Notes under the pieces: model-generated
The model's database searches: none
What the model was told of the DNA's origin: nothing
What the model saw: only the letters and a program-made list of their open reading frames with translations
In this document: positions 40,160-64,000 of the stretch, piece by piece
How the letters are laid out: each line of letters starts with the position of its first letter
Position numbering within the stretch: position 1 is the stretch's first letter
NCBI RefSeq assembly: GCF_030013595.1
Contig: NZ_CP122768.1
DNA length: 64,000 nucleotides
DNA from: Escherichia coli
Lineage (GTDB): Bacteria > Pseudomonadota > Gammaproteobacteria > Enterobacterales > Enterobacteriaceae
Strand: one strand, 5' to 3'
Made by a program: the position numbers and the translations under genes

Positions 40160-40937
40160 TCTTTAAAGAAGAGCTCGTACGAAGGTACGGGCTTTTTTTT
40201 CGTATATTGCACACACCGGGGGATGAGAAGCCCCGACCGGGGTTCGACAACTGGCGACAGCCAGTTGGACAGACCGTGAACGCAGTGAGCGGGCTGCCCG
40301 CAGGGCGAGCGAAGCGAGTCAATCCCCCCTCACCGCCATCTTTAAAGAAGAGCTCGTACGAAGGTACGGGCTTTTTTTTCGTATATTGCACACACCGGGG
40401 GATGAGAAGCCCCGACCGGGGTTCGACAACTGGCGACAGCCAGTTGGACAGACCGTGAACGCAGTGAGCGGGCTGCCCGCAGGGCGAGCGAAGCGAGTCA
40501 ATCCCCCCTCACCGCCATCTTTAAAGAAGAGCTCGTACGAAGGTACGGGCTTTTTTTTCGTATATTGCACACACCGGGGGATGAGAAGCCCCGACCGGGG
40601 TTCGACAACTGGCGACAGCCAGTTGGACAGACCGTGAACGCAGTGAGCGGGCTGCCCGCAGGGCGAGCGAAGCGAGTCAATCCCCCCTCACCGCCATCTT
40701 TAAAGAAGAGCTCGTACGAAGGTACGGGCTTTTTTTTCGTATATTGCACACACTGGGGGATGAGAAGCCCCGACCGGGGTTCGACAACTGGCGACAGCCA
40801 GTTGGACAGACCGTGAACGCAGTGAGCGGGCTGCCCGCAGGGCGAGCGAAGCGAGTCAATCCCCCCCTCACCGCCATCTTTAAAGAAGAGCTCGTACGAA
40901 AGTACGGGCTTTTTTTTCGTATATTGCACACACTGGG
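40141..40937 (+). repeat. tandem array of 179-bp units (4 full + 1 partial), each starting with the last ~19 nt of serX followed by a hairpin-plus-T-run terminator
   Basis: Unit starts (AATCCCCCC..) at 40141, 40321, 40500, 40679, 40858 - exact 179-bp period; copies near-identical with single-base variants (C-run length, cacaccgggg vs cacactgggg, gaaggtacg vs gaaagtacg). Confidence 0.92.
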
Positions 40938-41070
40938 TCCCCCCCCGCCCAAGTCTGTTAGGGCGAGGGGAAATCGTGCACATCAACTGTCTGATTGCTC
41001 AGTCAACAATCAAAATGCGCAAGAGAGTACAGAACATATATGTATTATCTGGACACTTCCTATCACTTCC

Positions 41071-42057
41071 TCACTTATTAAAATGCCCCCAACGAAAATA
41101 CATGTCACATGCCATCATAAAATCGTTATGCCAGAGGAATCGACAATGGAAAAAATAGTAAATTAAGCATGGTACATAGCAGAGTAAAAAATAGGCTTCA
41201 AACCAAATCCGCCATTCCACAAGCGTTGCCAATACCGACACCAGCGTAATCCACATCACTTCAATAACCAGCAATATGAATAACCGAAGCCAAAGCGGCT
41301 TGGCAAAAAAGGTCGACAACGCATTTTCACTGGAGAAAAACAGATCGATTTCCTGCAAAAAAAGCCTGCCCAGAAAAGCGTACCGCTTGGAGAAGCGCAG
41401 AAAAAACAGATTAATCGCCAACACTACGCCACAAAGAATGAGCAATGCAATTATCGATTTAAACGTTAACCACTGCCCCTCTGTCACAAAAGAATCACTG
41501 TTACGCAACGGGCTGATAGTAAGCAGGTTAACAACCGTTGAGATGCACACCGAAAGCAGCACATAGCGAGTCAGACTTTTATATTTTACCTTTTTCGCCA
41601 CTGAAATAGCGACCTGCTTGACATAACTGGTGCGGATCATCCGAAACAGCAGAAAGATAACCAACGGCCCAAGTAACGAAATCAGGAACAGCGCATATAA
41701 CGAGGGTAGAAGCTGGTATAGCCCCCAACTCATTGCACTCAACATGATTAGCGACAGAAATCCTGCCACCAGAGGTTGCGTAAGAAATAATTCTATTTTG
41801 TGGTTATGCTTTTTCTTAAACCACGAAAAATCGATATTCTTCGTGACGCATTTATAAGCCCAGTACGCCTTGAGATCAAAAATAAAATTATACAGCACCA
41901 GGGCCAGAATCCCACTAACGACACCAATATCCTCAGATGGAAAAGTAAACCCTGCATTTTTCCAATAAAAGCCTATCAGAATAAGTCCAATAGCATAAAT
42001 GTATATCAGATTTCGTTTATCCTGAAAGCGAATAAAAGTTAAATAATCAGGAATCAT
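41071..42057 (-). CDS. ycdU: polytopic inner-membrane protein YcdU
   Basis: 328-aa [42 protein letters not shown]...; multiple hydrophobic segments; start overlaps stop of upstream gene (ATGA). Confidence 0.85.
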
Positions 42058-42998
42058 TTGAATACCTTCGCATCACTAAATGCTTTACGACAATGCATAA
42101 CTCGTTGCTGATCCACGCCAGCAAAATCATTTAACATATTCCCCAAATAAGGCTTATTACTTATTTCAAGGAAAGCTACCGGGGTTGGCATATTCAGAAA
42201 TGTATCGAGAGATTCAGTCCATTTCACCGTGTGAGTTAAGTGTAATGAGAGATTTTCTTTGATAATTGACGGAGCGACCTCGCTTTTTGCTGTTACGTTC
42301 ATCAGAACCTGATGCTCTGGTGAAGCGATATCCAGTCCGGCAAGATAATCGCGCATTGCCTGAACGCCGTCTTCCATCAAACGCGTGTGCCAGGCACCGC
42401 TCACACCGAGTTTAACCGGTTCGTATCCAGCGGCCATCAGCAGCGTGGCAAATTCATTCAACGCAGCCTGCGTTCCCCCAATAACCTGCTGGCGCGGCGT
42501 GTTATCACAGCTAATATCCAGCGCAATGCCTGATTCCGTAATCATCGTCTGCAGTTGTTCGCGGTTGATGCCTTTAACCGCCAGCATTGCGCCTTTATTT
42601 CTCTGGCTTTCGTCATGCATCAGGCTGGCTCTGAAGTGAATCATGCCAAATAGCGTCTCAAGAGAAAGAGCTCCGGCGGCGTAGAGCGCACTGTATTCAC
42701 CAACGCTGTGTCCGCAGGAGCCCACAACCGTTAAATTCTCAAGACGCTCACGGCACAGGGTATAGAGCGTTACATTAATTGCGGTCACCGCCAGTTGTTG
42801 TACCGTCGTTTGAATAAGGCGATTCATCGGCCCTTTCTGACACAGGCGACGCAGGTTCAGTCCGGAAATATCGCTGGCACAATCCCAGATATGTTTTGTA
42901 CTGGCGTTGAGATCCCAAAGATCGCTGCCCATACCAATAACCGGATTACCCTGACCGGCAAAAAGCAGTACTGTCGGTTGTGAAGCATTATTCATCAT
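42054..42998 (-). CDS. ymdE: FabD-like malonyl-CoA:ACP transacylase family acyltransferase (full-length form of ymdE)
   Basis: 314-aa [17 protein letters not shown] (cf. FabD FPGQGSQ) and nucleophile elbow GHSVGE; K-12 carries only a fragment of this gene. Confidence 0.8.
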
Positions 42999-43008
42999 CT
43001 CTTTATCC

Positions 43009-61713: not shown

Positions 61714-62790
61714 GAATAAAACAACAAATTTGATGAGTTACAATTAATTTAAATCTTGTTATTTGATTAACAAAGCATCATCATTACTGCATCTCATTCT
61801 CTATATCTTTTACGTCGGGGTAGATTCTTTATGGTCATTACGGGCAGGCGACATTTCATTATATTACCACTTTCATTCACACTTGTAACCCTTAAGAGTT
61901 ATATAAAAAGGAAATAGTTCTTGCTCATGGTATTACTGAGATCGGATTAACCATGAGGTTAGCTATATAGAGAACTTTGGCTTTGCGACAATTGGCTTAA
62001 GCAGCCACATTATGCCTGGCTTATCGTTGAAAGGGAGAAAGAAGAGCAAAACGGTTTGGCAAGCTTTCATTCCCATCTAATAGCAATCACCGCTATACAT
62101 CATCCCTTAACGTACTCTGGCCTTCATAAAAATGTTATTCTAAATTAAAGATTGTAATGATTTTAATAATATTGTTATTATTTTGCAACAAATCAATCTA
62201 ACACAATGATTATTAGCGATTTTTTATTAGTTAAGAGAAATTGTTTTTACAGATTGAGCTACAATTCCGCTCATTTTTCACCACAGGAAAAGCTGAAGTA
62301 ATCTTAAATGACTGTATTAACCCTTTTCTCCGCTGCCAGCACTCTTAAATATCGTTGTTCTATTGTTATAAAAACAGCTTTTTTGACATAAAAAGTAATA
62401 GCTAAAGCCATTATGTAGCACTTCCAACCTGAATAGACCGCAAAAAACAACCCTATACAGAATAAAACTCTGTTCATCATCTTTCGGTAAGAATTAAATT
62501 ACTATATTACCGTTCAACATCAGTATGAATGAAAATTCAATTGTTATACATGTGATGAATGTCATATATTGTGCTCATCGATTGCAGGACATCGCTATTC
62601 TTTTAGAGATACAGATATCACGCTGTTACTCTCTGTATAAAGCACACGCAAAGATTAGTTGTGTTACTGCAGTTGTTATGTCGCATATGGAAAGCCCATT
62701 GTTACATCTTTAGTAAAAAGTTTTATTCACTTTCAAAATTTTTACTCCATGAAGATGGGCTGTTTTGCTGCAAGCAATTGAGTTAGTGCA

Positions 62791-63414
62791 ATGAACAAGA
62801 ACTTACTAACAAGGGTAATTATCATTTCGGATGATCTATATTACCTTCAGGGATTAAGTGCAAAACCAGGTAACCATTATCGTTTTTTTATTGAGTGTTT
62901 TTTTTGTTCTCAAAATGCATGTAATAATGACCTAAGTACACTTAGATTTGATAACCGCTTTACCAAAAACGTACTTCTTGTCGCAGTGGATGACGTAAGT
63001 ATACTTGCAAAACTGCCAGATTTGGCCAGGTTTTTAATGATTGTTTCACTCAGACAGATGAAAAACAGAAATATCTTCTTTTCACTTTCAGAGCAAACAT
63101 TCATTAGCCGATATATAAAATTGAATAAACTCATTACTTTGATTAAAAGTACTGATAAAGACCAGCAAGTCAGACAGGTGACTCTGACAAGGTATGAGTG
63201 GGATATCTATTACTTATATTTTAAGATAGATAACAAAAGAATATTGCACACCCTGCTAAAAAAGGATGTCAAGTACATTAGCCACTATAAAATATCGGTT
63301 TTCAACAAGTTTGAAATTGCTTGTGATAGTGATGGCTTTTACATTTTCAAGGCACTTATACAGTTAAGGAGATTTACCGGTTTTAAAAACGTCAGATTGT
63401 ATCAATTGCATTAA
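62791..63414 (+). CDS. putative LuxR/FixJ-type HTH regulator (fimbrial-operon regulator-like)
   Basis: 207-aa AT-rich ORF; C-terminal LTRYEWDIYYLYFKIDNKRILHTLLKKDVKYISHYKISVFNKFEI resembles a LuxR-type HTH (LTxRExxVL...NKxIAxxL.IS..TV..H...I..KL), degenerate. Confidence 0.4.
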   Translation: MNKNLLTRVIIISDDLYYLQGLSAKPGNHYRFFIECFFCSQNACNNDLSTLRFDNRFTKNVLLVAVDDVSILAKLPDLARFLMIVSLRQMKNRNIFFSLSEQTFISRYIKLNKLITLIKSTDKDQQVRQVTLTRYEWDIYYLYFKIDNKRILHTLLKKDVKYISHYKISVFNKFEIACDSDGFYIFKALIQLRRFTGFKNVRLYQLH

Positions 63415-63456
63415 TTATCTCGTTCTATATTAACTCTAAATTTCAAGGATATTAAT

Positions 63457-64000
63457 ATGTTTTCTACTTTCAAAAAAGCAGCTCTGCTGGCAGCTATCGC
63501 ATTACCTTTTTCTACCATGGCTGCACCGACAGTCACTTTTCAGGGTGAAGTAACCGATCAGACCTGTTCCGTAAATATCAACGGTCAAACCAATTCAGTA
63601 GTATTGCTGCCGACCGTAGCCATGGCTGACTTCGGTGCAACTTTAGCTGATGGCCAGAGCGCAGGCCAGACGCCGTTTACGGTTTCTGTGTCTAACTGCC
63701 AGGCTCCGACTGGTGCAGATCAGGCAATCAACACCACTTTCCTGGGCTACGACGTGGACGCTAGCACGGGTGTTATGGGAAACCGTGATACCAGCAGCGA
63801 CGCGGCGAAAGGCTTTGGCATTCAGTTAATGGATTCCAGCACTTCTGGTAACCCAGTAACTCTGGCTGGCGCGACTAACGTACCGGGTTTGACCCTGAAA
63901 GTTGGCGATACTGAAGCCAGCTACGACTTCGGTGCGCGTTACTTCGTTATCGATAGCGCAGCTGCCACTGCCGGTAAAATTACCGCTGTCGCAGAATACA
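63457..64000 (+). CDS. chaperone-usher fimbrial major subunit, 3' end beyond window
   Basis: ATG at 63457 with upstream AAGGAT; MFSTFKKAALLAAIALPFSTMAAPTVTFQGEVTDQTCSVNINGQ...CQAP... signal peptide plus Cys pair, fimbrial-subunit pattern; open to the window end. Confidence 0.7.
   Translation, partial: MFSTFKKAALLAAIALPFSTMAAPTVTFQGEVTDQTCSVNINGQTNSVVLLPTVAMADFGATLADGQSAGQTPFTVSVSNCQAPTGADQAINTTFLGYDVDASTGVMGNRDTSSDAAKGFGIQLMDSSTSGNPVTLAGATNVPGLTLKVGDTEASYDFGARYFVIDSAAATAGKITAVAEY

Follow-up and report, generated by a model that had tools for sequence, protein, structure and literature searches.

How did the accessory DNA downstream of the tRNA gene serX come to be present in some Escherichia coli chromosomes and missing from K-12? 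We address this question in a stretch of 64,000 nucleotides from an E. coli chromosome (RefSeq assembly GCF_030013595.1, contig NZ_CP122768.1), hereafter the window, in which an accessory segment starts directly after serX, at position 40160, and reaches the end of the stretch. It comprises a tandem repeat array, ycdU, a full-length ymdE of 314 codons, sixteen further genes, an AT-rich region and the start of a fimbrial locus. This layout, proposed in a first-pass annotation made from the sequence alone, is borne out by the open reading frames (ORFs), by TRF and by the GC profile; the sixteen genes that follow ymdE are 15 minus-strand genes up to the one for TpsA and a single plus-strand ORF of 207 codons.

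The already described O-island 47 (OI-47) of O157:H7 strain EDL933, reportedly defined by Perna et al. in 2001, has its homologue in this segment of a non-O157 E. coli. Positions 27500-64000 of the window match the pig isolate E. coli HCP5S3_I2 with 99.9% identity, and from position 40863 on a single collinear alignment of 36,153 bp runs to an O157:H7 chromosome, with 97.4% identity and the same gene order. In EDL933, OI-47 spans 31,727 bp (z1528-z1556) and encodes GrvA among others (PMC8565820, PMC10877973); the corresponding gap in K-12 measures 31,747 bp in our alignment. The segment shares with OI-47 its position between ymdE/ycdU and ycdT (dgcT), its absence from K-12, its size of about 31.7 kb and, in the same order, its gene content: a fatty-acid-synthase/polyketide-synthase (FAS/PKS)-like cluster, otpAB, a fimbrial operon, grvA and pdeT/vmpA.

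According to the RefSeq annotation of the 99.9%-identical genome, the segment continues for about 10 kb beyond the window. Genes for a chaperone, an usher, an adhesin and a second chaperone are followed by an SDR gene, grvA (winged-helix, ToxR-like), a hypothetical gene, pdeT/vmpA (EAL) and dgcT, after which come pgaABCD and phoH. The accessory region thus occupies about 34 kb of the chromosome between the RtT-like array at serX and dgcT. It consists of three modules: a 20.3-kb cassette of 17 genes from otpA to ycdU; an AT-rich spacer with a chaperone-usher fimbrial operon, named loc6 elsewhere (bioRxiv 10.1101/2020.04.13.038984); and a very AT-rich regulatory module of the SDR gene, grvA, the hypothetical gene and pdeT. 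We hold with high confidence that the whole is best explained as an OI-47 homologue of three modules that no tRNA-targeting integrase placed, that carries a putative lipid and secretion cassette, and that K-12 lost through an IS3-associated deletion.

The deletion is the part of this explanation that can be read most directly. The first-pass annotation had taken everything from 40160 to 64000 to be lacking in K-12. That holds beyond 42397; positions 40160-42397, which hold the array, ycdU and 344 bp of ymdE, are present there. The K-12 sequence leaves the window at 42397, inside ymdE, and resumes 11 bp past the dgcT stop codon, and the place of the absent DNA is taken by a 1,258-bp IS3, as the proposal of an IS3-associated deletion had it. 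IS3 makes 3-bp target duplications. The triplets that flank the K-12 copy are CAC on the left and AAA on the right, and since they differ, a target-site duplication is missing around this IS3.

The soil strain MEI7BO1-21 exemplifies a second class of genomes, in which a further 185 bp of ymdE remain (a 529-bp remnant ending at window position 42582), with flanks GCC/AAA and again no duplication. In both classes ymdE is truncated directly at the left inverted repeat of IS3, and the right junction between IS3 and dgcT is identical base for base. Among 5,426 complete E. coli genomes, which underlie all population counts given here, either IS3 junction is found in 2,195 (about 40%): 716 have the junction with the 529-bp remnant and, by subtraction, about 1,479 have the 344-bp junction of K-12. 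The deletion, shared by so many genomes in two nested classes, is therefore not specific to K-12. Any ymdE sequence at all is present in 2,624 genomes, and the gene is wholly absent from about 52%. Cassette DNA occurs in 390 genomes, with at least 80% of the cassette in 378 and full-length ycdU and ymdE in 389. The boundary of OI-47 falls inside ymdE because that is where the IS3 deletion ended.

The anatomy of the junctions shows an IS3 that sits 11 bp past the dgcT stop codon, and removal of the DNA from there to ymdE without target-site duplication, at two nested left endpoints (42582 and 42397) of which K-12 has the one with the shorter remnant. A resident IS that makes deletions should keep one end fixed while the opposite endpoint varies, as here, and is the probable cause. 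Two points weigh against this. The precursor state, with the island intact and IS3 beside dgcT, was found in 0 of the 5,426 genomes when we searched with a constructed junction of the pdeT side and the IS3 left end, so that we can only infer the order of the deletion events; and recombination between IS3 copies may have acted in place of intramolecular transposition. The missing precursor, together with the abundance of IS3 (a median of 3 matching places per genome), also favours an independent origin of the two scar classes, through different insertions or through recombination between two IS3 copies rather than nested deletions from one IS3. We consider this improbable. The IS3/dgcT junction is identical in both classes, and two insertions coinciding at the same nucleotide and in the same orientation are unlikely.

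Other arrangements exist at the same place. In the B2 strain 536, serX and 0.6 repeat unit are joined straight to dgcT (8761-8812, stretch L004; coordinates given for other strains are positions within labelled locus stretches such as L001, L029 and L039, not window positions). DgcT of this strain ends in KEAEILINRKDDE and not in RDVVNFCESP, a C-terminal tail of 12-14 residues being different. No source of this tail was found within the island, and the junction may be either an ancestral empty site or a deletion. In CEC15 and 20KM2762, the array is followed by a DUF2726 gene and then phoH, everything from ycdU through pgaD, including dgcT and pga, having been replaced (6478-7164 in L034, 6112-6798 in L035). 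The flanks of these two strains differ by only 0.11% from a strain that has the IS3 scar and dgcT-pga, and the replacement is therefore very recent. In a record of the K-12 "original strain" (NZ_CP174267.1), an IS5 interrupts pgaA (15117-18739, stretch L002).

A tRNA gene at the border of an accessory region raises the question of an integrase. The first-pass annotation had seen neither an integrase nor a phage gene, and every search agrees with it: the RefSeq annotation of the 99.9%-identical genome holds none from serX to dgcT, NCBIfam finds no integrase or phage family among the window proteins, PHROGs finds none for the unassigned ORFs, and tblastn with the P4-type integrase of OI-48 returns nothing better than E 0.38, and no remnant, from serX to putA (the window plus a 26-kb extension). 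It had also called for a search beyond the window for an integrase or a repeat of the serX 3' end. Up to dgcT neither is present, the added DNA holding only the fimbrial operon, the SDR gene, grvA, the hypothetical gene and pdeT. Copies of the serX 3' end up to dgcT are confined to serX and four array units, and a search for long-range direct repeats around the island in E. coli found none. The segment was most probably not placed by a tRNA-targeting integrase.

The array has a period of 179 bp, 4.4 copies and 99% matches (TRF score 1556). At the head of each unit stand the last 15-18 nt of serX, followed by the serX terminator hairpin and a T-run. The window holds five copies of the string CCCCCTCACCGCCA, which is the last 14 nt of serX: one in serX itself and four in the array units. 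The same string is the 14-bp direct-repeat att core of integrase islands at serX such as OI-48 (PMC3064760). In a relaxed search, four units score 42-43 bits against the Rfam RtT model, just under its gathering score of 45, and this is why there is no RtT match in the array at the gathering threshold. Copy number differs from strain to strain. Apart from the repeated serX terminator hairpin, a scan for promoters and terminators over 40000-43100 remained at chance level.

Integrase islands do use this site. In O157:H7 strain Show KS 470-1, OI-48 lies between serX and ycdU; its tyrosine integrase gene (11638-12840, stretch L029) adjoins ycdU, and a single copy of the att core stands 160 bp from that gene (13001-13014, L029). 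OI-48 abuts this copy, which corresponds to the last unit of the array in the window (position 40864), and the position of OI-48 implies that integrase islands insert between serX and the segment described here. In strain 998, serX is immediately followed by a CP4-like island. That serX is a real hot spot counts against our explanation and for a degenerate classical island, one that would have entered at the serX 3' end by means of a P4-type integrase, as OI-48, SRL-PAI and CP4-like elements did, and later lost the integrase gene and the distal att site. The five copies of the att core and the strongly AT-rich parts of the segment point the same way. We nevertheless judge such an origin very unlikely, given that no integrase remnant was detected, that the serX end copies stay within serX and the array, and that the array and a cassette of core-like composition stand between serX and the AT-rich parts. 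The distribution of the cassette in other species argues against it as well.

We scanned one representative genome per species with the 852-residue ketosynthase of the cassette and found 23 loci in other species, in Kosakonia, Enterobacter, Mixta, Rahnella, Serratia, Klebsiella oxytoca, Silvania, Leclercia, Izhakiella, Buttiauxella and one Acinetobacter. Wherever a locus is long enough to judge, its order is TpsA, TpsB, AcpS, FabG, FabZ, ACP, GcvT, ketosynthase (KS) didomain, KS, 317-residue protein, ABC ATPase, 218-residue protein, permease, LolA-like protein, 462-residue protein, YmdE, YcdU. Two distant members of the 317-residue family from metagenome assemblies stand in the same order. The outer neighbours differ in every genus (downstream ampC, tolC-like, nrfA, pnuC, entD or focA-like genes; upstream, by genus, oppA, yajQ, an RHS fragment, a clpV-like gene, pgsA or wzc), and within the 1-2.5 kb of upstream sequence viewed a fimbrial operon lies beside the cassette in 1 of the 23. 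The loci thus differ from one another, and tblastn with the OI-48 integrase found no P4-type integrase in their flanks, which could be viewed for 1-2.5 kb to either side. An integrase-sized ORF of 400 codons beside ycdU in Rahnella proved to be AmpC.

In one case the vehicle can be seen. Plasmid pEC105227L of Enterobacter bugandensis (IncFII, MOBF, 322 kb, mobilizable) holds a complete cassette at 5103-25557 (stretch L039), bracketed in the manner of a composite transposon by identical IS6-family transposase genes at 3495-4187 and 25713-26405, and not by att sites. A cassette homologue is also present on a Rahnella megaplasmid. Bracketing by the same IS was not seen in E. coli or in the 23 chromosomal loci. 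Collinearity at differing loci, together with the IS-bracketed plasmid copy, indicates that the mobile unit extends from TpsA to YcdU and has been carried by ISs at least once; between genera, the cassette would move as an IS-bracketed unit on plasmids. Being the invariant last genes of this conserved cassette, ycdU and ymdE are its tail and not chromosomal backbone.

Within E. coli, the carriers are mostly O157:H7, and about a quarter of the evenly sampled entries are other strains, from pigs, chicken, a frog, river water and humans. A review states that OI-47 is exclusive to O157:H7, O55:H7 and O145:H28 (PMC10877973), which the non-O157 carriers contradict. The opposite history, in which the K-12 arrangement would be the ancestral empty site, the 32 kb an insertion in the O157/O55 lineage and the K-12 IS3 an unrelated simple insertion, can appeal to that supposed exclusivity, to the definition of OI-47 as O157-specific and to the presence of the island in only 7% of complete genomes, but it can safely be dismissed, because the K-12 ymdE is a 344-bp remnant of the 3' part of a gene which the window and 21 other species have in full length, its IS3 has no target-site duplication, the second scar class keeps more of ymdE at an identical IS3/dgcT junction, ycdU and ymdE are invariantly the end of the cassette, and the carriers include non-O157 isolates.

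The age of the island in its carriers can be judged from its flanks. Between the window and O157, identity is 98.2% in the flanking core, 98.0% in the biosynthetic genes, 97.5% in otpA, 96.0% in the fimbrial operon and 96.8% in pdeT. Strain KV7 and O157 are 99.3% identical in the flanking core and 98.6% in the biosynthetic genes; for KV7 and the window the values are 98.05% and 98.1%. Island divergence follows flank divergence in all three pairs. For 16 comparable cassette genes, the ratio of nonsynonymous to synonymous substitution rates (dN/dS) is 0-0.20 at a dS of 0.03-0.12, a sign of purifying selection. Equal divergence of island and flank and low dN/dS imply that the island has been resident, and selected, for as long as these lineages have been apart. 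The data thus support a long-resident island, not a freshly integrated one; in carriers it would have been passed down together with its flanks, or else exchanged through homologous recombination within these flanks.

How far back this residence reaches is another matter, and here two findings speak against the ancestral part of our account. The pattern scan found no homologue of the 852-residue ketosynthase in other Escherichia species, a weak negative with one representative genome per species, and just over half of the complete genomes have no ymdE. For these two reasons, ancestry to E. coli as a whole is not shown. The first-pass annotation had described a mosaic, partly ancestral region rather than a fresh integration. 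Mosaic and long-resident it is, and "ancestral" applies only within part of E. coli, the cassette being mobile between genera and ymdE absent from 52% of genomes.

Composition supports the mosaic reading, with three blocks. Most cassette genes have a third-position GC content (GC3) of 0.44-0.61 and a codon-usage distance B of 0.19-0.36, against 0.27 ± 0.05 (maximum 0.37) for the core genes of the window. The first-pass description of the biosynthetic genes as core-like is therefore mostly right, the exceptions being ycdU and the genes for ACP, AcpS and TpsB, which are lower in GC. Its AT-rich region upstream of TpsA and in the fimbrial locus is there as described, with GC falling to 0.33-0.37 at 61-63.5 kb. 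The 207-codon gene and all four genes of the regulatory module depart strongly from this range (GC 0.33-0.41, B 0.46-0.56). So does dgcT, a "backbone" gene in K-12 (equivalent to window 74157-75515; 46658-48016 in stretch L001), whose GC of 0.385 and atypical codon usage resemble those of pdeT, grvA and the SDR gene. The compositional boundary and the boundary of the K-12 deletion do not coincide.

What the cassette might do can be proposed from its proteins (Table 1). TpsA and TpsB have the features of a two-partner (type Vb) secretion system, an N-terminal TPS domain in the former and, in the adjoining latter, POTRA domains with a ShlB barrel. In the KS didomain, the first domain has a Cys-His-His triad and the second, chain-length-factor (CLF)-like, has no Cys; the ketosynthase alignment, made against a FabF sequence, is to be read at motif level only. 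Pfam and NCBIfam give no match for the 462-, 317-, 218-, 328- (YcdU) and 207-residue proteins, and PHROGs gives none for the four of them that it covered, the 462-, 218-, 328- and 207-residue ones. It took structure prediction to resolve two of the five. The AF2 model of the 317-residue protein (pLDDT 70) has a thiolase/FabH-like fold (Foldseek E about 1e-8, TM about 0.5), and 1.84 billion clustered proteins include only 54 representatives of its family. This model does not support the name "ATP-binding protein" that RefSeq gives to 47860-48813. The 462-residue protein is modelled as an 18-strand barrel like OprD/Occ and AlgE (pLDDT 78, pTM 0.76; Foldseek PDB E about 1e-12, TM about 0.5). PDB 3BUU, the match of the 262-residue protein, is an uncharacterised protein of the LolA superfamily.

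A type-II FAS/PKS-like line made up of AcpS, ACP, YmdE, the KS-CLF didomain, two further thiolase-fold proteins, a ketoreductase, a dehydratase and the GcvT-like enzyme could thus build an acyl or polyketide lipid, which a Lol/MacB-like ABC transporter, a LolA-like carrier and an OprD/AlgE-like barrel would move across both membranes, and which may act together with the secreted OtpA/OtpB protein. Against this stand the moderate TM values of the two fold matches, both about 0.5, and the fact that lipid line, export and OtpA partnership alike are deduced from domain content. Going one step further, we offer as a tentative idea, short of an even chance, that the otpA-ycdU block is a single undescribed envelope system, whose lipid is extracted by the ABC pump, carried by the LolA-like protein, passed through the barrel, and works with or modifies OtpA; that ycdU and ymdE of K-12 are its functionless remnants, neither independent genes nor, as has been proposed, mastitis fitness factors; and that the GrvA-like regulators beside the cassette in Kosakonia and Buttiauxella are native to it.

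The regulators show a pattern of their own across genera. In Kosakonia and Buttiauxella, a CadC/ToxR-like gene stands directly upstream of the cassette, in Kosakonia with a small partner gene (3050-4388 in L016, about 3064-4400 in L017, 212-1063 in L014), and this gene and its partner are about 26% identical to GrvA and its 163-residue neighbour. In E. coli the fimbrial operon separates the grvA pair from the cassette, and we speculate that the operon was inserted between the cassette and its regulator pair. In Rahnella laticis, the gene immediately upstream of TpsA (1239-1790, stretch L021) encodes a tyrosine DNA invertase of the FimB/FimE type, a hint that in this genus the cassette, or else an operon next to it, is under phase-variable control. 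tRNA-Gly, tRNA-Cys and tRNA-Leu form one operon in E. coli. Two Mixta species have the cassette between tRNA-Gly and tRNA-Cys/tRNA-Leu (956-1031 and 22056-22225 in L018; 1711-1786 and 21870-22041 in L024), and no copy of the tRNA-Gly 3' end flanks it there.

Table 1. Features of the serX-proximal segment in the window (positions are window coordinates).
Feature	Position	Strand	Evidence
serX, tRNA-Ser(GGA)	40072..40159	+	ARAGORN; Rfam tRNA 53.8 bits
Tandem array; each unit with serX 3' end, terminator hairpin and RtT-like element	40145..40937	+	TRF, pattern search, Rfam
ycdU, 328-aa membrane protein, last gene of the 17-gene cassette; present in K-12	41071..42057	-	ORF; collinear ortholog in 21/23 other-species loci
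ymdE, full-length FabD-like malonyl-CoA:ACP transacylase, 314 aa	42054..42998	-	NCBIfam fabD 1.6e-52
Predicted outer-membrane beta-barrel, 462 aa, ~18 strands, OprD/AlgE-like; annotated "hypothetical"	43009..44397	-	Predicted structure and Foldseek
LolA-superfamily periplasmic carrier-like protein, 262 aa	44394..45182	-	PDB 3BUU 1.5e-34; RefSeq name
LolC/E / MacB-type ABC permease, 436 aa	45191..46501	-	NCBIfam lolCE 3.4e-26, under cut-off
Conserved 218-aa protein, no family match	46502..47158	-	Orthologs in 22 loci
LolD-like ABC ATPase, 235 aa	47142..47849	-	NCBIfam LolD 7.8e-68, under cut-off
Thiolase-fold (FabH/OleA-like) protein, 317 aa; RefSeq "ATP-binding"	47860..48813	-	AF2 model and Foldseek
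Ketosynthase-like protein, 407 aa, degenerate catalytic triad	48810..50033	-	NCBIfam; motif alignment
KS didomain, 852 aa: FabF-like ketosynthase and chain-length-factor-like domain	50038..52596	-	NCBIfam fabF 2.4e-134; motifs; PDB matches
GcvT-family (folate-dependent aminomethyltransferase-like) protein, 386 aa	52670..53830	-	Family match
Dedicated acyl carrier protein (ACP), 93 aa	53866..54147	-	Family match
FabZ/ApeI-like dehydratase, 182 aa	54169..54717	-	Family match; Pfam FabA / ApeI-like in relatives
FabG-like ketoreductase, 253 aa	54721..55482	-	Family match
AcpS-type holo-ACP synthase	55496..55876	-	Family match
OtpB, TpsB transporter of two-partner secretion system	55880..57499	-	Pfam ShlB 6e-68, POTRA_2, POTRA_3
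OtpA, TpsA exoprotein, 1270 aa, first gene of the cassette	57588..61400	-	NCBIfam TPS domain TIGR01901 7.9e-22
AT-rich divergent intergenic region between otpA and the fimbrial operon, GC ~0.33, longest ORF <=62 aa	61401..62790	.	
Hypothetical AT-rich 207-aa gene, GC 0.325, upstream of the fimbrial subunit gene	62791..63414	+	
Fimbrial subunit gene, start of the chaperone-usher operon (loc6), cut by the window end	63458..64000	+	

Individual carriers depart from the intact arrangement. The window ycdU (41071-42057) is an intact ORF of 328 codons, with a 1-bp indel relative to HCP5S3_I2 (13574-14559, stretch L001), where the gene is annotated as frameshifted. KV7 has an internal stop in the ACP gene (26367-26648, stretch L032), and ETEC6335 has frameshifts in the KS didomain, TpsA and grvA (22539-25095, 30087-33898 and 43529-44340, stretch L033). 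Such scattered pseudogenes contrast with the strong purifying selection seen overall. As to the host of the window, the 3.7 kb between csgD and ycdY (34500-38180) differ by 1.7-2.1% from K-12, 536, O157, KV7 and five others; this haplotype is the most divergent of the ten compared, and the host may therefore belong to a deep-branching lineage.

As genome architecture the region is ordinary; for experimental work, its cassette offers a reasonable lead. Both O-island 47 and the truncation of the K-12 ymdE by IS3 were already known. New here are the exact anatomy of the scar, with the size of the deletion, the missing target duplication and the two nested classes, the counts in 5,426 genomes, the occurrence outside the O157 lineage, and the assignment of ycdU and ymdE to a conserved, IS-mobilisable cassette of 17 genes for secretion and predicted lipid synthesis. 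The IS3 scar, which is found in K-12 and, in all, in 40% of the complete E. coli genomes, can serve as a lineage marker and gives reason to treat ycdU and the truncated ymdE of K-12 as remnants.

Among known systems, OI-47 of O157 is the closest, and both it and the present segment hold otpAB, the loc6 fimbriae, grvA and pdeT/vmpA. They differ in that the host here is not O157, no OI-48 lies between serX and ycdU, the sequence diverges by about 2%, the adjoining array has 4.4 RtT-like units, unlike that of O157, and dgcT is intact, whereas it is frameshifted in the O157 strain compared (46285-47644, stretch L029). The islands at serX with P4-family integrases, OI-48/TAI of O157 and SRL-PAI of Shigella (PMC3064760), share with the segment the tRNA gene and the 14-bp core; they have an integrase and bounding direct repeats of the core, and the segment has neither.

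The scar has been seen before from the K-12 side. The stretch pgaABCD-ycdT-IS3-ymdE-ycdU was described as "a region of genomic heterogeneity" by Goldstone et al. (2016, PMC4951805), who also noted the truncation of ymdE by IS3 in phylogroup A, and ymdE-ycdU has been treated as a two-gene unit that is possibly still functional (PMC4951805, PMC5635171). The ymdE'-IS3-ycdT(dgcT) junction of K-12 is the same locus, of which the window shows the undeleted state, and what these papers took as a pair is here the last two genes of a 17-gene cassette.

Aryl-polyene (APE) clusters, type-II PKS-like systems of Gram-negative bacteria that Cimermancic in 2014 and Grammbitter in 2019 are said to have described, resemble the cassette in having a dedicated ACP, a KS with a CLF-like partner, a FabG-like reductase, an ApeI/FabZ-like dehydratase, a LolA-like protein and export genes in one operon. 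The cassette differs by its GcvT-like enzyme, the FabH-fold protein of a tiny family, the LolCDE/MacB-type ABC transporter, the OprD/AlgE-like barrel, YcdU and the two-partner pair. NCBIfam and Pfam found among its 17 proteins no adenylating (ApeH-like) starter enzyme, no acyl- or glycosyltransferases and no MMPL/RND exporter, judged against the usual list of genes that define such clusters. We reject the cassette as an aryl-polyene cluster because these defining components are missing.

The two-partner pair, finally, has its counterpart in OtpA and OtpB of O157, for which secretion was shown experimentally and the function is listed as unknown in what PMC5422565 reports of the work (Choi et al. 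2007, cited there). TpsA and TpsB of the window are their orthologs, with 97.5% and 98.0% DNA identity. When the literature was searched by locus tag, no study of the biosynthetic genes of the cassette came up. A link of OtpAB to the upstream fimbriae has been suggested (PMC5422565; bioRxiv 10.1101/2020.04.13.038984). Whereas that literature points to the fimbriae, otpAB is here invariably linked to the lipid genes downstream, and the tie between OtpAB, of unknown function, and a conserved cassette for the predicted synthesis and export of a lipid provides a testable lead for both.

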